DNA of 64,000 nucleotides from an uncultured Chloroflexia bacterium (GCA_963754485.1 CAVWFY010000006.1:83205-147204), one strand, 5' to 3'. Counted from the first letter of the stretch, positions 37,779 to 51,575 are shown. Numbers and translations are program-made. Notes: generated by a model not told the origin, from the sequence alone.

Positions 37779-38440
37779 ATGGCAGCGTCATCCCTCGACG
37801 ATCTCGACCTCGTCGTCATGACGATGGCCAACACGATCGTCGACAACGCGGACTACTTCGCCCAGCTCGACTCGATCGTGGGCGACGGCGACTTCGGGTA
37901 CTCGCTGCGCAGCGGCTGGGAGGTGGTCCTCGCGGACTACGACTCCTGGGACAAGCCCAACGCGGGCGCGGTCTGCAAGAAGATCGGCCTCACGCTCGCC
38001 GCCAAGGTCGGCGGTGTCAGCGGCCCGATGTGGGGCACGGCGTTCCTGCGGGCCGGCGCCACGGCGGGCGACCAGGATCTCACGCCCGACCTGGTGATCG
38101 CGATGCTCCGTGCGGCGATCGCCGGGATCATGACGCGCGGCGGGGCCTCCCTCGGCGACAAGACGCTGCTCGACGCTCTCTCCCCGGCGACCGACAGCCT
38201 CGAGGAGAGCTTCAAGGACCCGGCGACATTCGAGGACCACGGCGTGGCCGCGATCCAGCGAGCGGCCGACGTGGCCGTCCAGGCCGCGCGAGGACACCAA
38301 GGGCATGCTCGCGCTCCGCGGGCGCGCGGCCTACACGGGCGACCGGAGCCGGGACTCGGTGGACGCCGGCGCCACCGCCATCGGTGTGATCCTGCAGGCC
38401 ATCGCGGCGGCCTGGCGGGACAAGCACGGCACAGCAGTAA
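37779..38440 (+). CDS. dhaL: Dihydroxyacetone-kinase subunit L family; frameshift(s) near 38290 and probably 38430
   Basis: LDSIVGDGDFG, GGVSGPMWG, GDKTLLDAL, GRAAY.GDRS..DAGA. Confidence 0.85.
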
Positions 38441-42444: not shown

Positions 42445-43669
42445 ATGACCAGCCGGCCGAACCCCAACGCCCGCGTGCTCCGGTACGCCGGCTACCGATC
42501 GTTCGCCTACCTCGAGGGCCGGCGCGGACTACCGGCCTTTCCACCTCGCGTCCGAGACCGATCGGGTCCCGCCGTTCTTGGTGGACGTCAGCGACGCCGA
42601 GGAGGATCGGGCCTGGCGCCTGCTCGCGGCCCACCCGGCGATCTCGCTCCACGACCACCTCGAGGTGGCCCCGGACGACATCACGCAGCAGGACGAGTGG
42701 GTCCGCGAGGCGCACCTGGCCACGGGCTACGAGGGGCTCGCGCGCTCCGGTCTGGCCGCGGTCTTCGAGAACTTCGGGGACGGCACCGCCACCATCACCA
42801 GCAGGAGCGGCTGGAAGTGGTCCGACGTCATCCACGACGTCGGGATGCGCTACGCGGACTGGGCCCACCAGGACTTCGCCGTGCGCGCGGAGACGGTCGC
42901 CGATATCCACGCCGCCTTCGGGAGCGGCCGGGTGGCGCTGATCGGGGCGCTGGAGGCCGCGACCCCCATCGAGAACGAGCTCGACCGCATCGATGTCCTC
43001 TACGGCCTGGGCATCCGGATGCTGGGCGTGGTGTACAGCGATAGCAACGCGCTGGGCTCCGGCTGCCGCGAGACGCGGGACGGCGGGCTGACGGTGTTCG
43101 GCTGCCGCGCGGTGGAGCGCATGAACCGGCTGGGCATGCTGATCGATGTCAGCCACGCCGGCGACGAGACCAGCCTGGACACGATCCGCCTGTCCAGGGC
43201 GCCTGTGGTCATCAGCCACTCGGGCTCGCGCGCGCTGTGGCCGATCAGCAAGTGCAAGCCGGACGCGGTGATCAAGGCGTGCGCGGAGCGGGGCGGCGTC
43301 ATCGGGATCGAGGCGGCACCCGGAACCACGATGGTCAGGCCGGACCTCGTCGAGGCATCCATCGAGACCTTCATGCGCCACTTCGAGTACTGCGTGGACC
43401 TGGTGGGGATCGACGGCGTGACCTTCGGGCCCGACACGTTCTTCGGCGACCACGCCGGCAGCTACGGCATCCCGAGCGGCGCCCTCCTCGCGAGCGGCGA
43501 CTCGGAGTACGACGCCGTCGTCCCGGAGTACGTCGTGGGCCTCGAGAACATCGGCGACTTCCCGAACATCGTCCGCTGGCTCGTGAAGCACGGCTACTCG
43601 GATGACGAGATCGCGAAGGCCATCGGCGGCAACACGCTGCGCGTGCTCGGCCAGGCCTGGTCCGGGTGA
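42445..43669 (+). CDS. Membrane dipeptidase (M19) family; frameshift near 42520
   Basis: LHDH, GALE, MNRLGMLIDVSH, ISHS, GGVIG, FGPD, IGGNTLRV. Confidence 0.88.
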
Positions 43670-43758
43670 CCCCCTGGCCCCGGGGTAACCTCTGACACTA
43701 CGGCAGGGAGCCGCTCGGGAATATGATCGCCTCGCTGGATCGCGCAGGAGACGCACGC

Positions 43759-44541
43759 GTGGGTGTGACCGGGACGGAAGCGCAGCCGGTTGAGGCGCAG
43801 CGGGCCCTCGTGCTTCACGACCGGCCGTTGGTGGTCGATCTCATCGAGCTCACCCTCAATCACGGGATGTTCGTCGTCCGCGCCGTCCAGTCCCTTGCCG
43901 AGGCCGACAACCTCCTGGCTGATTGGCACCCGCAGCTGGTCGTCCTGGACATGGACCACGACGACAGCACGGCCCTCCTCGGTCGGCTGGGGGCCTCCGA
44001 CCAGCTGACCAAGCGCGGGACCCCGGCGCTTGGCCTGACGCGGCGGGGCGACCTCAAGACGAAGCTGCGGGCCTTCGACCTGGGCGTCGACGACATCCTG
44101 ACGATGCCGTTCTCGCCCGAGGAGCTGCTCGCCCGCTCGATCGTCATCACCCGTCGTGCCACGGGGACGGATCTGCCGCTCATCCCGACGATCACCCTCG
44201 GCGAGATGGAGATCGACATCCTGAGCCGCGAGGTGCGGACCGGGAGCTCGGTCATCCACCTCTCCGGCATCGAGCAGAGCCTGCTCTACCTGCTCGCGAG
44301 CCGGAGCGGACGGGTGGTCACGCGCGACGAGATCCTCGACGCGGTCTGGGGCACCGACTTCGTGGCCGAGAGCAACATCGTGGACCGCCACATTCGCAGC
44401 TTGCGGATCAAGCTCCAGAACGACTACCGCCAACCGCGCTTCATCGCGACCGTCCCGGGGCGGGGCTACCGGTTCATCCCGACGTTCTCGAACCGGGGAT
44501 GGGCCGGCGAAGGAGATCCGGGCCACAAGCCGCAGCCCTGA
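43759..44541 (+). CDS. Orphan atypical OmpR-family response regulator
   Basis: Winged helix (SNIVDRHIRSLR, TVPGRGYRF); receiver has LHD and TMPF instead of (E/D)D and KPF; TATGAT -10 at 43722, AGGAG RBS. Confidence 0.85.
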   Translation: MGVTGTEAQPVEAQRALVLHDRPLVVDLIELTLNHGMFVVRAVQSLAEADNLLADWHPQLVVLDMDHDDSTALLGRLGASDQLTKRGTPALGLTRRGDLKTKLRAFDLGVDDILTMPFSPEELLARSIVITRRATGTDLPLIPTITLGEMEIDILSREVRTGSSVIHLSGIEQSLLYLLASRSGRVVTRDEILDAVWGTDFVAESNIVDRHIRSLRIKLQNDYRQPRFIATVPGRGYRFIPTFSNRGWAGEGDPGHKPQP

Positions 44542-44594
44542 TCGACGCCGCGTCTTCTGCGAACAACGCGCGCCCGTCCGGCGTGCGCCGGCCA

Positions 44595-44611
44595 CATGAC
44601 GAACGGTCATG
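44595..44611. promoter_or_regulatory. Operator-like motif CATGAC-N5-GTCATG (site 1)
   Basis: Matches the island motif; ATGCCG-17-CACATT follows on +. Confidence 0.45.
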
Positions 44612-44683
44612 CCGTGGCCGTGCATCGCACCCACATTGTCCCCAGAGTCCCAGCGACTCGTCGTTGAGAGGCCGAGGCCGGCC

Positions 44684-45580
44684 TCAGGGGTTGCCGCTGA
44701 ACGTGTCGCACCCGTCCGGTGACTCCGCCTCGTAGCCGGCCGTGAACCACTTCTGGCGCTGGGCGGACGAGCCATGGGTCCACGTCTCGGGGTTCACCTG
44801 GCCCTGCATCTCCTGCTGGATCCGGTCGTCGCCCACGGCCGACGCGGCATCGAGCGCGTCGGCGATCTCGGCCTCCGTGAGCGGCACAAGGTAGCCCGTC
44901 GCAGCCGCGTTGCCCGCCCACACGCCCGCGTAGCAGTCGGCCTGGAGCTCGACCCGGACCGACTGCCCGGCGGCCCCCTCCTGGCTCGCCCCGCCCGACA
45001 ACGTTCCGACCAGGTCCTGGACGTGGTGCCCGTACTCGTGGGCGAGGATGTAGGCCTGTGCGAACGGCCCTCCCTGGGCGCCGAACGTCGAGCGGAGCTC
45101 GTCGAAGAACCGGAGGTCGATGTAGACGTACTGGTCGTTCGGGCAGTAGAACGGGCCGCTGGCCGACGACGCATTGCCGCAGCCGGTGCTGATCTGGTCG
45201 GTGAAGAAGCGGGTCCTGGCCAGCACATACTGCTGGCCCGAGGCAGCGAACTCGTCGGTCCAGTAGGCCTGGATGCTGTTGACGTAGCCGACGATCCGGC
45301 AATCCTCGCTGGCGTTCGCGTCGGCCCCGGTCTGGCACTCGGCCGCCAGGGCGCTGCTGGCCGGCCCCGGCTCCTCGGCGCCACCGCCGATCGTCTGGCC
45401 GACGAGACCGCCGACCGTCTCGCCGGTCTCAGGGCTGCCGCCCAGGAGCACCCACACGAGGGCGACGATGATCCCGATCCCGCCGCCTCCGCCGACCATC
45501 AGGCCGCGCCCGCCGATCCGCGAGCCGCGGACGTCCTCGACCTGTGATGGATCGAGCTTCGCGCCCGTGTTGAACGACAT
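44684..45580 (-). CDS. Neutral zinc metallopeptidase (YpfJ family)
   Basis: [34 protein letters not shown]. Confidence 0.92.
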
Positions 45581-45646
45581 CTCAGGAGGCTCCCGCGGGC
45601 GACGCGCTCACGGCGGGCCGGGACGCCACCGGGCCGTCTCCCGGCG

Positions 45647-45733
45647 TCACAACCTGATGACGCCGACCAGGATCAGGATCACCACGACGATGACAATCAC
45701 GCCGATGATCCCGACGCCGCCGCCTCTGTTCAT
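45647..45733 (-). CDS. 28-aa single-pass membrane peptide MNRGGGVGIIGVIVIVVVILILVGVIRL
   Basis: Translated by hand; GGGAG RBS 6 nt upstream; not in the ORF track. Confidence 0.7.
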   Translation of the reverse strand: MNRGGGVGIIGVIVIVVVILILVGVIRL

Positions 45734-45862
45734 CTCGATCTCCCGTTCGATGACCGCCAGGACCGTTGAGCCGTCGCGTCGGGAGCGGGTCGCGCTCATG
45801 TGCGTGGTGCCTCGCCGCGACAACGCCTAGGCTATGCCAGTGTCTCGTCCAGTCTCCGGCGC

Positions 45863-45883
45863 GTCATGACGGTCGATCATCAC
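45863..45883 (-). promoter_or_regulatory. Operator motif site 2 overlapping the -35
   Basis: GTCATGAC-GGTCG-ATCATCAC; minus strand ATGACG-17-GACACT. Confidence 0.6.
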
Positions 45884-45963
45884 CTGCCGGCGTCGCGACC
45901 CGAGGAGGACGCGGCTCGATCACCCGCCAGATCGCCCCCCACGATCCTCGCGCCTCGGGGGAC

Positions 45964-46392
45964 TCATCGATCGTTCCCCTTGCCCGGGAGTCGACCGGGA
46001 CGCCCGCGGACGCCGCCGAAGGGTGACCCCGGGCGGGTGGCCATCGCTCCGACAGCGAAGAATGCCGGCGCGATAGCCGCGAGGGTGATGAGGCGGGGGG
46101 CGCCGGCGAGGTGGAGCCCGGTCGCCAGCCCGATCGAAGCTGCCCCGAGGAGCCGCAACGATGGGTCGGACAGGACCTGAAGCGTGGTCGTGGTCTCCTG
46201 GACGCCGAGCCGGGTGCGTTCAGCGGCATCCGGCAGGCGTCCGGCGACGCGCTCGGCGCCGGTCCGAGCGTTCTCGAGCACCTCGGGAACGTGATCGACG
46301 GCGCTCTCGAGCGCGACCCGGATCTGGCCCGCTCTCGAGCGCGTTTCGTCGATGGTCTCGGTGGCCCTGGTGTGGGCCTCGGCGGTGGTCAT
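45964..46392 (-). CDS. Small helical protein with C-terminal hydrophobic hairpin (paralogue of 49521-49886)
   Basis: GAASIGLATGLHLAGAPRL; AAGGAG RBS. Confidence 0.7.
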   Translation of the reverse strand: MTTAEAHTRATETIDETRSRAGQIRVALESAVDHVPEVLENARTGAERVAGRLPDAAERTRLGVQETTTTLQVLSDPSLRLLGAASIGLATGLHLAGAPRLITLAAIAPAFFAVGAMATRPGSPFGGVRGRPGRLPGKGNDR

Positions 46393-46510
46393 CGGGTCTC
46401 CTTCATGGGATTCGCGCTGTGCATGGCCGACCCTGGTCGACTCCGGGGCAAGCCCAGAGCCGCACCGTGCGGATCCCCTGAACGGCCCGCTGCCGCGGTG
46501 ACTCGCCGGG

Positions 46511-46693
46511 TCAGTCGTGCCCACCCTTGTTGAGGGCGTCCTGGACGTCGCCCAATCCGTCCTGGGCCTTGCCCTGGACCTTCTGGACCTTGCCCTTCGT
46601 CTCGAGCTTCTTGTCGCCGGTCACCTTGCCGACGCCCTCGTTGACGGTGCCCTTGACGGTGCTCACGGCACCCTTGACGTGCTGGTCGGTCAT
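46511..46693 (-). CDS. CsbD-family stress protein
   Basis: KGTVNEGVGKVTGDKKLETKGK..K.QG.AQ. Confidence 0.88.
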   Translation of the reverse strand: MTDQHVKGAVSTVKGTVNEGVGKVTGDKKLETKGKVQKVQGKAQDGLGDVQDALNKGGHD

Positions 46694-46959
46694 GAGGCGG
46701 TTCCCCTTGCTCCGCGCGACAGGAAGAGCCGCGCGACGAAGATGACGACGATGGCGCCGAACACGGCGACGACGAGGCTGGAGAGGTTGAAGCCCGTGAT
46801 GTCGGCGATGCCGAGCACGGACCCTGCGATGAAGCCGCCGACCACGGCGCCGACGATTCCGAGGACGATCATCATGATGAGGCCGTCGCCCCCACCCATG
46901 ATCAGGTTGGCGATGAACCCAGCGAGTGCGCCGAGCGCGATCCAGGCGATGATTCCCAT
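46690..46959 (-). CDS. GlsB/YeaQ/YmgE transglycosylase-associated membrane protein
   Basis: MGIIAWIALGALAGFIA, IVLGIVGAVVGG, SLVVAVFGAI. Confidence 0.9.
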   Translation of the reverse strand: MGIIAWIALGALAGFIANLIMGGGDGLIMMIVLGIVGAVVGGFIAGSVLGIADITGFNLSSLVVAVFGAIVVIFVARLFLSRGARGTAS

Positions 46960-47048
46960 GGGAACAGTTCCTTTCGTGGCGCGCCCGCCAGTGACGGGTC
47001 ACGATGAAAGCGGGGGATCACCCGCCCGCTGCGGGGACCGCGATGCGG

Positions 47049-47468
47049 TCAGACGGTTGCTGCGGTCGATCGGCGTCCGAAGAGCCCGATGACCCAGAGC
47101 ACGATGAGCTCGAGGATCGTCCAGCCGACGAAGGCCACGATGGCGGTGATGTCGAGGACCGAGCCCGCCGAATGGATCGAGTCCGTTCGCAGGATCCCTT
47201 CGAACGGCGCCACGAACACCTGGCTGATGTTGAGGACCGCGGACACGAGGGCGTTGGCCTCCCGCGCGTCGAGCAGGAGCAGGACGATGCGCGCCCCGAT
47301 GACGATCTGGATGAGCCCGAAGGCGAGGACCACGATGCGGCGGGCAAGCTCGGCGCCGCCGGGGCCCGACCTGGTGGTGCGCTTGCTGTCCGTCTGCACG
47401 GTCGCCTGGCCCGTCGCCGTGGGTTCCTGGGTGGTGACGACCGTCCGGTCGACTTGATCGACTGCCAT
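47049..47468 (-). CDS. YggT-like small membrane protein
   Basis: R.VLLLLDA...N..V......S..FVAPF.GI; two to three TMs. Confidence 0.7.
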   Translation of the reverse strand: MAVDQVDRTVVTTQEPTATGQATVQTDSKRTTRSGPGGAELARRIVVLAFGLIQIVIGARIVLLLLDAREANALVSAVLNISQVFVAPFEGILRTDSIHSAGSVLDITAIVAFVGWTILELIVLWVIGLFGRRSTAATV

Positions 47469-47576
47469 GGAGCTCTCCCGTGCCTTCTGCATCCGGGGAA
47501 GCGGGGCCTGGCGACCACCGCCGGGCTACTCGCCGGCCAATGCTGTGGTTGCAGTAGGCACCCGGGCCGGCACGGT

Positions 47577-47656
47577 GTCATGACGGTCGGTCATTCCGCC
47601 AGGGTGTCGTGAACGGACCGTCCCGCCCGCCTCCCGCGATGACGAACCTTCATGAC
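47577..47656. promoter_or_regulatory. Two operator motifs (sites 3 and 4) in a divergent promoter
   Basis: GTCATGAC-GGTCG-GTCATTCC (47577-47597); GCGATGAC-GAACC-TTCATGAC (47636-47656) with ATGACG-17-CATGCT on +. Confidence 0.6.
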
Positions 47657-47737
47657 GCGCCCGTTGCGGGGAGGCATGCTGACCGAGCCCTGACCCAGGG
47701 CCGGCGGCCACTCAGCCAGGCAGTCGAGGATTGCACC

Positions 47738-48565
47738 ATGACCAACGGTCGAGACAGCAGCGCGACCTCCGGGCCCGACATGACGGTCGTCCGGCGGGCC
47801 GTAGATCCTGAGGCGCTGTTTGCCGACCTGGCTGCTGCAAGGCTCGACCGTGGGATTGCGGGTGACGACACGGCCGCCTCCGACGCCGACCGCACGGCGT
47901 CCGAACGCGATGACGCGGCTCGGCGCCGGGAACGGCGGGCCCTCCTGGTCGAGGACGCCATCGCGGGTTCCGACGCTTCCGTCGCGGAGAAGGTCGAGCA
48001 GTTGCGGCAGCAGGCGGCCCACGATCGTGCCGGTGCGGCCGCGGAGCGCGAGCGAGCTGCCGAGGAACGGACCGAGGCGACTGCCGAGCGCTCCCGTCTG
48101 GAGGCGGAGCTTCACGGCGCGTACCTCGATGGCCTCACCGGAGCGTTCCGCCGGGAGGTGGGCCAACACGCGCTCGCACTCGAGATCGACCGCGCCCGTC
48201 AGGCCGACGGGCGCTTCGTGCTTGCGCGCATCGACGTGGATGGCCTGGGGGGCATCAACGAACGAGCCGGTCACGCAACCGGGGACCACGTGCTCAGGAC
48301 ACTCGTCGCGATCATGCGGTCAGGCCTCCGATCGTACGACCCCATCGTGCGCATGGGGGGCGACGACTTCGCATGCGGGATCGCCGGGGCCGGGCTCGAC
48401 GAGGTCGACCTCCTCTTCTACGAGGTCGAGCGCTCGATGCAGGCGGACACGGGAGTTGGGATCAGCGTGGGCACGGCCGCCCTCGCCGTCGGCGAATCGA
48501 TTGAGCAGATCACCGCCCGAGCCGATGCCGCCCTGCTCGACACGAAGGGGTTGCGCCCGGCCTGA
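47738..48565 (+). CDS. Coiled-coil plus GGDEF-domain protein with variant GGDDF motif
   Basis: DGLTG, IDVDGL..IN..GH..GD.VL, RMGGDDF, ADAAL. Confidence 0.82.
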   Translation: MTNGRDSSATSGPDMTVVRRAVDPEALFADLAAARLDRGIAGDDTAASDADRTASERDDAARRRERRALLVEDAIAGSDASVAEKVEQLRQQAAHDRAGAAAERERAAEERTEATAERSRLEAELHGAYLDGLTGAFRREVGQHALALEIDRARQADGRFVLARIDVDGLGGINERAGHATGDHVLRTLVAIMRSGLRSYDPIVRMGGDDFACGIAGAGLDEVDLLFYEVERSMQADTGVGISVGTAALAVGESIEQITARADAALLDTKGLRPA

Positions 48566-48733
48566 CGGCCGGCTTCGGCTGCAGCCGGCCGAGTTGGTGG
48601 ACGCCGACAACCGGTTCGCCACCGCCCCGCCGTAGTCCGTGCCGTCGGTGGTGTCGGTCGGGATCGGTGCGGACGGTCGGAAGCCGGCGAGGCACGTTGG
48701 CGCCACGCCGGCCGCCTCGGAGCGGGGGGTGGA

Positions 48734-48919
48734 TCAGCCCTTGTCCTTGGGCTTGTTGAGGGCGTCCTGGAGATCGCCGAGCGCCTCCTGGCCGCTGCCC
48801 TGGACCTGCTTCGCCTTGCCGTGGATCTCCTGGCCCTTGTTGCCGGTCACCTTGCCGGCGACCTCCTCGGCCTTGCCCTCGATCTTGCTGACGGTTCCCT
48901 TGACGTGCTCATCGGTCAT
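48734..48919 (-). CDS. CsbD-family stress protein (second copy)
   Basis: MTDEHVKG...GKVTGNK...GK.KQVQG..QEALGDLQDALNK; AAGGAG RBS. Confidence 0.88.
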   Translation of the reverse strand: MTDEHVKGTVSKIEGKAEEVAGKVTGNKGQEIHGKAKQVQGSGQEALGDLQDALNKPKDKG

Positions 48920-48983
48920 GTCGGTGCTCCTTGTGCGTGTCGCGTTGCGTTGGGGTGGTCGCCGAGCCCGCCGGCGCCGCGCT

Positions 48984-49439
48984 CTAGACCAGGTCGCCGA
49001 TGGCGGCGAGCTCGTGGACCTCGCCATTGGAATGGGACAGCGCGTCGTTCTTGCCGGGCACGGACATGCCCTCGTTTGCGGCGCGGTCGATGGCGTCCCG
49101 GTCGAACTCCCTGTCCTCGACGCGATCGCGCGCTGCGACGCCGGCCGTGCGGCGATGCATCAGCCAGGTCGCCACGCCGACCACTGCGAGGACGCCGACG
49201 GCGACACCGGCCACCAGGATCGGGAGCCGGCTACGTGGCCGCCGCTGACCGGGGAGCCGCTCGATGACGCCGCGCGCGGCCTCCGACGCCGCCTCCATCG
49301 CGGCGTCGACGTGGGCCGGCACGTCCACGCGCCGCAGGAACTCGCCCGGGTCAGGCAGGGAGAGTTCGCGTGCCGAGCGCACGACCGCCTTCGGGTCGAT
49401 GCCCGCGTCGGCGATGCGGAAGGATGAGGTGTTGAACAT
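48984..49439 (-). CDS. Hypothetical single-TM protein
   Basis: 151 aa, one TM, AANEGM motif near the C-terminus; GAGGA RBS. Confidence 0.65.
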   Translation of the reverse strand: MFNTSSFRIADAGIDPKAVVRSARELSLPDPGEFLRRVDVPAHVDAAMEAASEAARGVIERLPGQRRPRSRLPILVAGVAVGVLAVVGVATWLMHRRTAGVAARDRVEDREFDRDAIDRAANEGMSVPGKNDALSHSNGEVHELAAIGDLV

Positions 49440-49520
49440 GGATGGTGTTCCTCTCGGTACGGCACTTCGTCGTGCGGTTCACATCTTGGGGATCGCTGGA
49501 TGGGCGGGTGCCTCGGGTGG

Positions 49521-49886
49521 TTACGCGGACCTGGTGCCGCTGCGGCCCATCGCTGTCGCGGCGACGGCGATGGCCGGGAGGAGTGCCACGCCGAGGACGA
49601 GACGCGGTACTCCCGCGATCGCCAGTCCGGCGCCCAGCCCGATCGAGGCGGCCGCGACGAGGCGTCGCGTTTGTTCCGGCCACCCGTCGACCTGCCGCGC
49701 GCCTGCCGCGGCCCCGTTGCGGACGCCGCCAACCAGACCGGGCACCCGGTCGCCGACGTCGCCGGCCGTCGAGCGAATGGACTCGATACCTGTCGTGATG
49801 GCCCTCCGGGTGCCGGACATGACGTTCTGCTCTCGGGTGCGGATCGGGACGTGGCGCATCCCGGGATCGTGTTGAGGATCAGTCAT
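49521..49886 (-). CDS. Small protein, paralogue of 45964-46392
   Basis: AAASIGLGAGLAIAGVPRL. Confidence 0.68.
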   Translation of the reverse strand: MTDPQHDPGMRHVPIRTREQNVMSGTRRAITTGIESIRSTAGDVGDRVPGLVGGVRNGAAAGARQVDGWPEQTRRLVAAASIGLGAGLAIAGVPRLVLGVALLPAIAVAATAMGRSGTRSA

Positions 49887-49985
49887 GAAGCGCGCTGCTT
49901 CCTCGGTGCCATGGTCGCCCGCAGGCTTGCTAGCCTGTCCCAGATGCGGGGACGCCCCCTCAGCATCAGCCGCTCATCGGACGTT

Positions 49986-50006
49986 GTCATGACTTCGTGT
50001 CATGAC
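49986..50006 (-). promoter_or_regulatory. Operator motif site 5 (perfect)
   Basis: GTCATGAC-TTCGT-GTCATGAC; minus strand ATGACA-17-GATGCT. Confidence 0.7.
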
Positions 50007-50019
50007 ACCATGCCCGTCC

Positions 50020-50508
50020 CTACTCCTCGGATGCGCCCGGTGTCGGGACCGCGTTGGGATGATCGGCAAACAAGGACCCGATCGCCCCGAAGAGCCCCTG
50101 GAGGGGGAACGGCTTGCGGAGGAAGACGAACGGCTGGGCGAGCTGGAGCGTCGTGGCCCCGGACCATCCCGACATGAGGACGACCGGCAGGCCCGCTTGT
50201 CGCTCCCGGAGGAGCGTCGCGAGGTCGAGCCCCGACTTGCCCGACATCTGCAGGTCCGTCACGAGGAGGTCGATCGCGTGACGCCGGGCAAGCGCCGCGG
50301 CCTCTTCGGCCGCGGTCGCCACGACGGTGCACCAGCCCTGCGAACCGAGGGCCATGGCCAGCAGCTCGCCGACCATGGGCTCGTCGTCAACGACCAGGGC
50401 GGTGAGCTGCGAGCCGTTGACGGCCGGCGTCCCTGGTCGTGCCGCCGGGTCGAGCCCACGCCGGCGCCGCGCGGTGACAGGCACGTCCGGGATCGGGTGA
50501 GGGCGCAT
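50020..50508 (-). CDS. Single-domain response regulator (receiver only)
   Basis: LVVDDE, VTDLQMSGKSG, LMSG, LRKPF; leaderless ATG 7 nt after CAAGGT. Confidence 0.85.
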   Translation of the reverse strand: MRPHPIPDVPVTARRRRGLDPAARPGTPAVNGSQLTALVVDDEPMVGELLAMALGSQGWCTVVATAAEEAAALARRHAIDLLVTDLQMSGKSGLDLATLLRERQAGLPVVLMSGWSGATTLQLAQPFVFLRKPFPLQGLFGAIGSLFADHPNAVPTPGASEE

Positions 50509-50539
50509 GAGCGGCACCTTGCGCGGATGCTCCGAGCCC

Positions 50540-50560
50540 GTCATGACGGGCCGTCATGAC
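50540..50560 (-). promoter_or_regulatory. Operator motif site 6 (perfect)
   Basis: GTCATGAC-GGGCC-GTCATGAC; minus strand ATGACG-17-CAAGGT-7-ATG. Confidence 0.7.
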
Positions 50561-50587
50561 CGTGCCCCCGAGCGGGTCCGCTGCCGA

Positions 50588-50701
50588 TCAGGCGGTGCCC
50601 ACGAGGGACTTGTCCGGCAGGTCAGGCGTCGTCGCAGCAGCCTGCACGAGCTCGATGTCGATCTCGATCTGCACCTCGTCGCTGACCAGCACGCCGCCGG
50701 C
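50588..50701 (-). pseudogene. 3' remnant of a YceI-family gene
   Basis: Hand translation AGGVLVSDEVQIEIDIELVQ...* matches the YceI C-terminus; no 5' part. Confidence 0.7.
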
Positions 50702-51575
50702 ATCCGCCTGGAACACGAGCATCGTCGACGGGGCGGTGCAGGGCGTGCCCTGGTACGTCGAGACCAGGCTCCTCTACTACCGCACCGACATCGCCGAGAA
50801 GGCGGGCATCACCGCGGCACCCGAGACGTGGGACGAGCTGACGGCCATGGCCAAGGCCATGCAGGCCAAGGGCGATGCGAAGTGGGGCATCTCGCTGGGG
50901 ACCAAGAACTGGCAGGAGTACCTGCCGTTCCTGTGGTCGAACGGCGGTGCCGTGATGGACGACCAGGGCAAGTTCCAGCTGAACAGCACCCAGGCCGTTG
51001 AGGCCCTCACCTACTACGCGTCCTTCTTCAAGGACAAGCTGTCGCCCGACCTCGGTTCCCGAGGGGTTCGACATCACGCCGGCGTTCGTCGCCGGCACGC
51101 ACCCGATGTTCTTCTCCGGGCCATGGCACCTGGGCCTGATCAAGGAGGCCGGCGGCCCCGGCTTTGAGACCAAGTGGGCGATCGCCCCGATGCCGGAGAA
51201 GGTCGAGCTCGACCTCGTTCCTGGGCGGCAGCAACCTGGTCGTCTTCAAGGACAGCCCGAACAAGGACCTGGCCTGGGCCTTCGTCCAGTACCTGTCCGA
51301 TCCCAACGACCCAGGTCGCGTGGTATACGGACGTTACCGACCTGCCGGCCGTCCAGGCCGCATGGACCGATCCCGCGCTGGCCGCCGACCCGAACGTCGC
51401 CATGTTCGGCGAGCAGCTCAAGAGCACGATGGCGCAGCCCGCGATCGCGACCTGGAGCGAGCTCGGCAACGCCCTCAACTCGACCCTCGAGAAGCTGACC
51501 ACCGGCACGATGACCCCGCAGGCCGCCGCCGATGAGATGCAGGCCGAGGCCGAGAAGATCGGGACCGGCAACTGA
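50700..51575 (+). pseudogene. Sugar ABC transporter substrate-binding protein, 5'-truncated and frameshifted
   Basis: GVPWYVETRLLYYRTD, APETWDEL, FFSGPW, SFLGGSNL; no start or signal peptide. Confidence 0.85.

Follow-up and report, generated by a model that had tools for sequence, protein, structure and literature searches.

The 64,000-nucleotide (nt) stretch of DNA analysed here (GCA_963754485.1 CAVWFY010000006.1:83205-147204; 'the window' denotes that whole stretch) is, by the evidence of its sequence, part of a metagenome-assembled genome (MAG) of Candidatus Limnocylindria, a class of the Chloroflexota. Within 6 kb it carries six copies of a palindromic motif that would act as the promoter-operators of one trans-acting regulon, widespread though patchy across the Limnocylindria families searched; that there is one regulon with one operator we regard as highly probable. 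The factor reading the motif is quite probably REG, an OmpR/PhoB-family response regulator by its Pfam domains, encoded at the edge of the island (43723–44541, plus strand; the database gene model starts at 43759). Taken as a whole, the data lean, with moderate confidence, towards REG as a probably phosphorylation-independent, class-II-type activator of weak promoters. The best relatives of REG (74–87% identical) come mostly from Chloroflexota, Candidatus Limnocylindria or Limnocylindrales MAGs, and the few that bear other taxon labels are taken for binning errors.

The six sites had been pointed out in a preliminary description of this DNA, which also called two of them perfect double palindromes. 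A search of the window for GTCATGAC-N5-GTCATGAC with up to three mismatches returned exactly six matches, at 44593, 45863, 47577, 47636, 49986 and 50540, so that all of the sites are indeed present, and those at 49986–50006 and 50540–50560 are perfect double palindromes. In contrast, 100 shuffles of the window gave a mean of 0.25 matches and reached six in none (0/100). The 8-mer GTCATGAC alone occurs seven times in the window versus 0.91 expected; six of these copies lie inside the sites and the seventh, at 37815, is solitary, without a partner. In the whole assembly (2.83 Mb, 71% G+C, 22 contigs, 57% complete) the same search found 12 matches, six of which are the window sites, and all four matches to the core ATGAC-N5-GTCAT lie inside the island. 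The bare core is nevertheless not commoner in this genome at N5 (4) than at N4 (9) or N6 (6), from which we conclude that specificity resides in the extended motif and its placement. When the assembly was scanned with a position weight matrix built from the sites of relatives (described below), the six window sites were the top six genome-wide, at 22.1–38.1 bits, followed by runners-up of 16.6 bits at C4:3349(-) and 14.0 bits, versus a maximum of 12.7 in the reversed genome that served as control. The first runner-up, a seventh and weaker site, precedes a gene for an acidic-repeat protein that is 50–57% identical to motif-driven orthologues in relatives. A chance cluster of sites is rejected by the shuffles together with this ranking.

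Each of the six sites is followed by a -10 box after a 17-bp spacer. Site 1 with its -10 occupies 44596–44637 on the plus strand (ATGACGAACGGTCATGCC; 30.0 bits), the spacer separating ATGCCg from CACATT at 44632–44637; it stands directly after the REG stop codon, which is a conserved position, and has one mismatch in its GAC. Site 2 lies on the minus strand at 45839–45880 (ATGATCGACCGTCATGAC; 37.1 bits), with ATGACg and GACACT (45839–45844). Sites 3 and 4 diverge from each other: the former is on the minus strand at 47553–47594 (ATGACCGACCGTCATGAC; 38.1 bits), with ATGACa and CCTACT (47553–47558), and the latter on the plus strand at 47639–47680 (ATGACGAACCTTCATGAC; 32.5 bits), with ATGACg and CATGCT (47675–47680). 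The last two are again on the minus strand, site 5 at 49962–50003 (ATGACACGAAGTCATGAC; 22.1 bits; ATGACa, GATGCT at 49962–49967) and site 6 at 50516–50557 (ATGACGGCCCGTCATGAC; 33.7 bits; ATGACg, CAAGGT at 50516–50521). Site 6 also scores 24.4 bits on the plus strand, where it has no -10, and an ATG at 50508 starts 7 nt after its minus-strand -10 box. Our reading of the sequence thus agrees with the preliminary description on the -35-like ATGACn (ATGCCg at site 1) and on the exact 17-bp spacing to the five -10 boxes that it gave. Its remark that site 3 lacks a clean -10 does not hold, as CCTACT is present and 15 of the 23 orthologous YGGT promoters have C[CT]TACT in this position.

To describe the motif beyond this genome we used 80 related loci (1.11 Mb in total, 79% of it covered by our own gene calls). 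The core ATGAC-N5-GTCAT occurs 111 times in these loci, in 110 cases flanked by GAC or, on the opposite side, by GTC. An alignment of 119 sites from the loci, oriented by the GAC side, defines a conserved unit of 18 bases, ATGACG-N3-CGTCATGAC, in which the distal GTC is weakly present. The double 8-mer palindrome originally proposed as the operator is therefore perfect at two window sites and is not the form kept in relatives, which is this 18-mer. Positions G6 and C10 are each conserved at 84%, which fits a dyad. The -35-like hexamer ATGACn sits at positions 14–19, and the 17-bp spacer holds across the 119 sites; in the -10 columns A reaches 87 at position 38 and 61 at position 40, and T 90 at position 42 and only 8 at position 37, giving the form [C/G]A.A.T. 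Outside the 18-mer and three -10 positions the information content is about zero. A dispersed repeat or mobile element is contradicted by these unconserved spacers and flanks and by the unrelated genes that lie downstream. The dyad centre (position 8) is 29–34 bp upstream of the fixed -10, that is, at about -41 if transcription starts some 7 nt past the box.

A pattern search for the directly repeated half, ATGAC-N8-ATGAC, gave 137 matches in the 80 loci, versus 0–6 at nine other spacings from N4 to N13, and the triplet before the proximal ATGAC was GTC in 119 of them, GTA in 13, TTC in four and ATA in one. Although 79% of these loci is coding, 126 of the 137 sites are fully intergenic and the reversed-pattern control was close to zero per genome, so that the motif is by no means equally frequent in random or coding DNA. 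It is also directional: for 101 singly oriented sites, a gene start lies within about 430 nt on the GAC side in 84 and on the other side in 24, with leaders mostly of 40–110 nt.

The motif is kept where orthology predicts that it should be, at least for the YGGT-like target. Close orthologues of the YGGT-like protein (62–100% identity, 23 genomes) all have a co-oriented site 60–141 nt upstream (23/23; 32.6–47.9 bits), while none of seven distant YGGT paralogues has one (best scores below 0; six belong to REG-less genomes, and the seventh to a genome, 60% complete, in which REG was not found). Across the 80 loci we tallied the genes downstream of 186 sites (up to one mismatch). The YGGT-like cluster (27 members) leads with 23 sites, followed by the GlsB type (10), a repetitive secreted protein (7) and the family of the window proteins encoded at 45964–46392 and 49521–49886 (6); REG itself, a small membrane protein and the acidic repeat protein have five sites each, a degenerate GGDEF, a DUF4177-like, a Gly-zipper and a SHOCT cluster four each, a sugar-binding protein operon and a HAD hydrolase three each, and a cupin two. 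For 50 of the 186 sites there was no called gene of at least 40 aa downstream. In a complete relative (G056), 16 core sites are dispersed over the chromosome, which, together with the site on C4, argues that the regulon is trans-acting and no peculiarity of the island. Of the stress-island regulon first suggested, the regulon and its operator thus stand and the confinement to an island does not. The 'general stress' role is suggested by gene content: the predicted targets are small membrane and stress-type proteins (YGGT-like, GlsB/Transgly_assoc, CsbD, Gly-zipper, SHOCT, degenerate GGDEF and others).

The distribution of REG follows that of the motif. We surveyed 60 genomes of the same genus, accepting REG orthologues at E ≤ 1e-50. 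The 25 genomes with REG contain 1–19 core matches (median 6; at least two in 24 of the 25), while the 35 without contain 0–4 (median 0; none in 22), and the reversed-pattern control was 0 in nearly all genus genomes. REG copy number and motif count are rank-correlated (rho 0.82). In addition, a co-oriented site lies within 350 bp past the stop codon of 51 of 90 REG genes, often at 14–50 bp and whichever gene follows, and only five of the 90 have a site upstream. No DNA-binding protein other than REG stands out as recurring in the module. By phyletic link, copy number and the site after its gene, the regulator at 43759, put forward in the preliminary description as the protein to assay, remains the best candidate and is, we believe, the likely reader of the motif. 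At the class level (where alone genomes G136 and G160 enter the tallies), orthologues at E < 1e-100 (at least 68% identity) are patchy in several genera of two families, with 0–6 core matches.

Could the protein in question instead be a neighbour of REG? Class II activation from inverted repeats is the textbook role of Crp/Fnr proteins, and an HTH_Crp_2 protein (Pfam, 2e-10) is found beside REG in nine of the 80 loci, often divergently. Its genomic distribution speaks otherwise: the gene occurs in only nine of the 60 genus genomes, was not found in six genomes with at least 10 sites, and is present in one genome (G042) with a single core match and no REG. Moreover, the odd spacing of the half-sites puts the dyad on a base pair, unlike the CRP or FNR boxes known to us. 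On the distribution, the Crp-like neighbour was rejected as the factor, and we consider it very improbable that any other transcription factor, a dispersed repeat element (given the unconserved flanks and unrelated downstream genes) or a chance cluster (given the shuffles) accounts for the sites. In the genome from which the window comes, a Crp/Fnr-like gene lies on another contig (C13:45389-46081).

The -10 boxes of the motif promoters are unusual. TAnnnT is present in three of 124 and [CGA]AnnnT in 83 of 124, and the usual first T is absent in 121 of 124. Canonical boxes are nonetheless in use nearby: TAnAAT occurs in 20 of 91 REG upstream regions versus 10 of 2000 random windows, and in the window's own genome TTGAC-N17/18-TANNNT is enriched (28 and 24 of 2845 versus no more than 0.15% after other pentamers). 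A scan of 43600–50800 with a sigma-70-type consensus returned no promoter. Near-total avoidance of the housekeeping TANNNT is also what one would expect of promoters read by an alternative (stress) sigma factor, in which GTCATGAC would be an extended -35 and CA.A.T the -10, with REG no more than an accessory to the regulon or a co-inherited part of it. In other phyla sigma factors control CsbD and GlsB-type genes, and since targets, motif and REG travel together, this explanation and one centred on REG cannot be fully told apart from phyletic data. Yet the sigma factor leaves without explanation both the half-site ATGACG, which lies 10 bp upstream and is conserved just as well, and the symmetry of G6 and C10. 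Neither the island nor, as a recurrent feature, the 80 loci showed a sigma gene, though no search was aimed at sigma families. The placement of the site after REG genes and the scaling of motif number with REG copy number likewise speak for REG, and we judge the sigma-factor explanation improbable.

REG has the architecture of the OmpR/PhoB family, an N-terminal receiver (PF00072 Response_reg, 1.9e-9; 38.1 bits, cut-off 30.2) followed by a C-terminal winged-helix domain (PF00486 Trans_reg_C, 1.6e-23). Its closest solved structures are Mycobacterium tuberculosis PhoP (1e-25), KdpE, RpaA, MtrA and PrrA, and the DNA-binding domain of PhoB matches residues 157–254 at 1.7e-11. The canonical phosphorylation pocket, on the other hand, is incomplete. 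The acidic pair is HD instead of DD, shared by the orthologues (84 compared) and degenerate in all relatives, and the Lys position holds Met in REG and, in every one of 27 wider family members, M, L, V or A; the phospho-Asp is invariant and the Thr is kept. There is no kinase gene beside REG, the nearest HATPase_c on the contig (14433–14768) being about 29 kb away and paired with another regulator, and the neighbours of REG vary across the 80 loci. Given the degenerate receiver and the lack of a kinase gene nearby, the activity of REG is probably not set by ordinary phosphotransfer. Compared with atypical regulators of the HP1043/ChxR kind, REG shares the degenerate receiver and the orphan gene, but its phospho-Asp is still invariant. 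The protein database holds at least 5624 relatives of REG at E ≤ 1e-20 (8000 candidates scored), and the best 120 of these bear only generic or automatic names ('OmpR family regulator', PhoP, KdpE).

Two further features of the family were observed. The C-terminal tail of REG, at residues of about 250–262 (window about 44470–44510), contains IPTFSN.GW, which is shared by orthologues of its own family and absent from the homologues of a sister family described below. In one genus genome, a REG copy at G021:C3:25850-26221 is broken by a TGA and shortened (57% identity, residues 139–263), and it is adjoined by three perfect sites and a YGGT-like operon.

From these observations we propose the following mechanism. 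Each site consists of an inverted repeat, ATGACG-N3-CGTCAT, extended by GAC, such that its last AT together with GAC provides the -35-like ATGACn with a TTGACA-like core, TGAC; 17 bp further on comes a -10 of the form [C/G]A.A.T that lacks the usual first T. REG presumably binds the inverted repeat as a dimer, placing its two winged-helix domains one helical turn apart and centred near -41, and the half-sites ATGAC/GTCAT, inverted with their centres 10 bp apart, would suit a dimer of two-fold symmetry lying along one face of the DNA. ATGAC is also directly repeated, at 13 bp. The trailing GAC is best explained as the -35 contact of the polymerase, although it could belong to the site of the factor. 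From this position REG would help RNA polymerase to use an intrinsically weak promoter, as do class II activators, PhoB and the Helicobacter pylori regulator HP1043, and it probably would do so without ordinary phosphotransfer.

That the effect is activation is favoured by the anatomy of the promoters, and we consider it reasonably likely. It is favoured because more than 100 unrelated promoters all keep one and the same register to the -10, because the dyad centre falls near -41, because the -10 avoids its first T although TAnAAT and TTGAC-N17/18-TANNNT are in use, and because the sigma-70-type scan finds no promoter at the locus. REG might, on the contrary, use the same operator as a repressor, covering a near-consensus -35 core at the optimal 17-bp spacing, and so keeping RNA polymerase away, until stress releases it. 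In keeping with this, TGAC is kept at the -35 in essentially all sites, and the first of two REG paralogues in the sister family has a promoter with ATTAC-N5-TTCAT at about -35 to -21, before a canonical TAGACT, which is a repressor-type position and indicates that the family can probably repress. The motif promoters themselves fit repression poorly: canonical TAnAAT is used in the same loci and yet only three of 124 have a TAnnnT box; operators of repressors usually vary in position, while the register here does not; and a centre near -41, with the precedents of PhoB and HP1043, points to activation. Repression by REG is in our view unlikely, though of the alternatives it is the one that we take most seriously.

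Several observations weigh against activation by REG, or against parts of that proposal. First, the -41 centre assumes the predicted start about 7 nt after the -10; the TGAC core is well kept, whereas activator-dependent promoters usually have a poor -35; and an operator lying over the -35 is in the classic place for a repressor. Second, OmpR-family proteins are normally found on tandem direct repeats with a period of 10–11 bp, and the direct repeat of ATGAC here has an odd 13-bp period. Third, site 1 has no gene to drive; as it faces a convergent peptidase gene, we regard it as an orphan or relic promoter. Finally, the link to REG has its own weaknesses. Related genomes are not independent, so the figures that associate REG with the motif overstate the case, and because REG, targets and motif are co-inherited, the phyletic link by itself cannot single out REG: close YGGT-like targets are found only in genomes with REG, or else in assemblies that are incomplete or contain a broken REG. 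Seven of the 35 genomes without REG have at least two core matches; two of these apparent exceptions are 67% (G048) and 60% (G051) complete, and one (G021) has a broken copy. Another genome (G141) has five good sites and no REG match at 1e-40, but it does hold an 84%-identical C-terminal REG fragment. Conversely, one genome with REG has no core match (G116), and one that is 50% complete has two REG copies and a single core match (G066).

A third family, the sister family mentioned above, shows the same arrangement in altered letters. In its 10 loci (L104–L113, from G090, G163, G102 and others), homologues of REG that are 41–52% identical occur as tandem pairs with three nearby sites. In nine of the 10 the second paralogue is followed by ATGAm-N5-G[TA]AATGAC and, after about 18 bp, TAnnnn; a further site precedes the second paralogue; and the ATTAC-N5-TTCAT described above stands in the first paralogue's promoter in most of the 10. 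As the layout is the same with the letters changed, layout and synteny persist while protein and motif diverge together. The asymmetric site and the site in the family's own promoter are hints of autorepression and of heterodimers. Put together, these strands would make the REG family a Limnocylindria-specific master regulator that works free of phosphotransfer, binds head-to-head on an inverted repeat and recruits RNA polymerase from -41, so that an OmpR-type protein and not a stress sigma factor would run a general stress or dormancy regulon, with the paralogues of the sister family heterodimerizing on ATGAm-N5-G[TA]AATGAC and repressing their own promoter from -35 to -21. We offer this combined picture tentatively, as it is rather doubtful that all of its parts are right at once.

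In their working, the closest known systems would seem by analogy to be HP1043 and PhoB, combined with class II geometry. HP1043 (HsrA) is an atypical OmpR-family regulator that binds a ttTAAG-5bp-tTTAAg site near -35, is modelled head-to-head and stimulates RNA polymerase (PMC8345958). Like REG it has a degenerate receiver, and it is described as functioning independently of phosphorylation; its site, like that of REG, consists of two short half-sites 5 bp apart, one helical turn, that can be read as an inverted repeat near -35 (PMC8345958). The two differ in the half-site (TTTAAG versus ATGAC/GTCAT) and in role: HP1043 has an essential housekeeping function in an AT-rich member of the Campylobacterota, and REG is accessory, often multi-copy and tied to targets of the stress type in GC-rich Chloroflexota. 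HP1043 was not named among the 38 PDB matches of REG, and we saw no specific sequence relationship between the two.

Escherichia coli PhoB belongs to the same protein family as REG and matches it in the DNA-binding domain. It binds direct repeats with an 11-bp period, and the PHO box takes the position of a normal -35, its distance to the downstream -10 being fixed. Unlike REG, PhoB is phosphorylated by PhoR and uses direct repeats; the predicted site of REG is an inverted repeat with an extra GAC, and REG has no Lys in its receiver and no kinase nearby. The PHO box's best-conserved motif, CTGTCAT, contains the half-site GTCAT (PMC4415409). With class II promoters of the CRP/FNR type (-41.5) the motif shares an inverted repeat about 41 bp before the presumed start, overlap with the -35 and a fixed register, but the protein family is another one, the half-sites have an odd spacing and the core of the -35 is well preserved. 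The general stress regulons of sigma B, RpoS and EcfG resemble the present one in their CsbD, Transgly_assoc/GlsB, Gly-zipper and small membrane proteins; they differ in that control here appears to act through a DNA-binding response regulator and its operator rather than through a dedicated sigma-type promoter.

We know of nothing on gene regulation in Limnocylindria, abundant and uncultured as they are, and literature searches with the motif in several spellings and with Limnocylindria plus response regulator, which did not extend to supplements, found no description of motif or regulon. What is new is the operator, the candidate factor and the regulon in an uncultured class; there is no new principle. 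The result provides a sharply defined operator, a candidate factor and a list of targets, all testable with cloned parts. If our reading is true, REG would join HP1043 as another, independent example of an OmpR-family protein whose receiver is degenerate and which acts on an inverted repeat at -35, and a stress-type regulon (CsbD, GlsB, YGGT-like) would be run by such a protein. As an annotation tool, the motif marks many small unannotated genes in these genomes, as the sites without a called gene illustrate.

Turning to the genes of the window locus, Pfam bears out the content first described (two CsbD proteins, a GlsB/YmgE-type Transgly_assoc protein, a GGDEF protein and a receiver-only protein), the YGGT match alone being weak, and adds the Zn_peptidase, the OmpR-type regulator and several small family-less proteins. 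Site 2 heads a minus-strand unit (44684–45799) of a 50-aa membrane protein (45647–45799) and the Zn_peptidase (44684–45580). The operon under site 3 (45964–47492, minus strand) encodes the YGGT-like protein (47049–47492; E 6e-5, under the Pfam cut-off), Transgly_assoc/GlsB (46690–46959), CsbD (46511–46693) and a 142-aa membrane protein (45964–46392), a gene order also found in relatives. The operon under site 5 (48734–49886, minus strand) comprises a 121-aa membrane protein (49521–49886) that is a paralogue of 45964–46392, a 151-aa protein (48984–49439) and the second CsbD (48734–48919). Neither these two membrane proteins nor the 151-aa protein matched a Pfam family, the first having a sub-threshold DoxX_2 match; both kinds recur motif-driven in relatives, in clusters of 15 and three members, respectively.

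The two remaining targets are signalling proteins. Site 4 drives a GGDEF-domain protein (47738–48565, plus strand; Pfam GGDEF, 1.2e-18) whose cluster in relatives is motif-driven in four of six members. In its translation, read by eye, GGDDF replaces GG(D/E)EF, and an RxxD precedes it by exactly five residues (RSYD-PIVRM-GGDDF). By the I-site rule, an RxxD five residues before the GGDEF motif, the protein looks like a non-catalytic form that binds cyclic di-GMP. The target of site 6 is a receiver-only protein (50020–50508, minus strand; Pfam Response_reg, 3.8e-16) with the canonical DD, D, S and K, which had no counterpart among the 80 related loci (cluster size 1).

Downstream of site 1 we found, by eye, only a 23-codon TTG frame and a GC-rich hairpin. 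The hairpin (gaggccgaggccggcctc, about 44668–44686) separates REG and site 1 from the peptidase gene that converges on them; it could be a terminator for both directions that lacks a T run, and a consensus terminator scan did not include it in its output. In the one RNA-library run, 0.08 of the sampled words were present. Most contigs of that run derive from relatives (31 of 511 reach at least 99%), and the contigs overlie coding sequence within the peptidase, CsbD/GlsB/YGGT and CsbD/151-aa stretches; they show no starts, strand or level, DNA is possibly in the library, and uncovered promoter bins carry no weight.

The far edge of the island adjoins a sugar-binding-protein gene (50560–51575, after site 6). 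In three of the related loci (L027, L037 and L073) the order is REG, site and an intact operon of this type, and our guess is that the island was inserted between REG and that operon; the DNA after site 1 showed no homology to the operon's leader. In the window, the alignment of the sugar-binding-protein gene with intact orthologues (about 81% identity) does not begin until 50705, at about codon 133 of the intact gene, and the reading frame of the window's gene is split over three frames, with the two permease genes downstream intact. From its sequence, it looks like either a 5'-truncated, frameshifted pseudogene or an assembly error.

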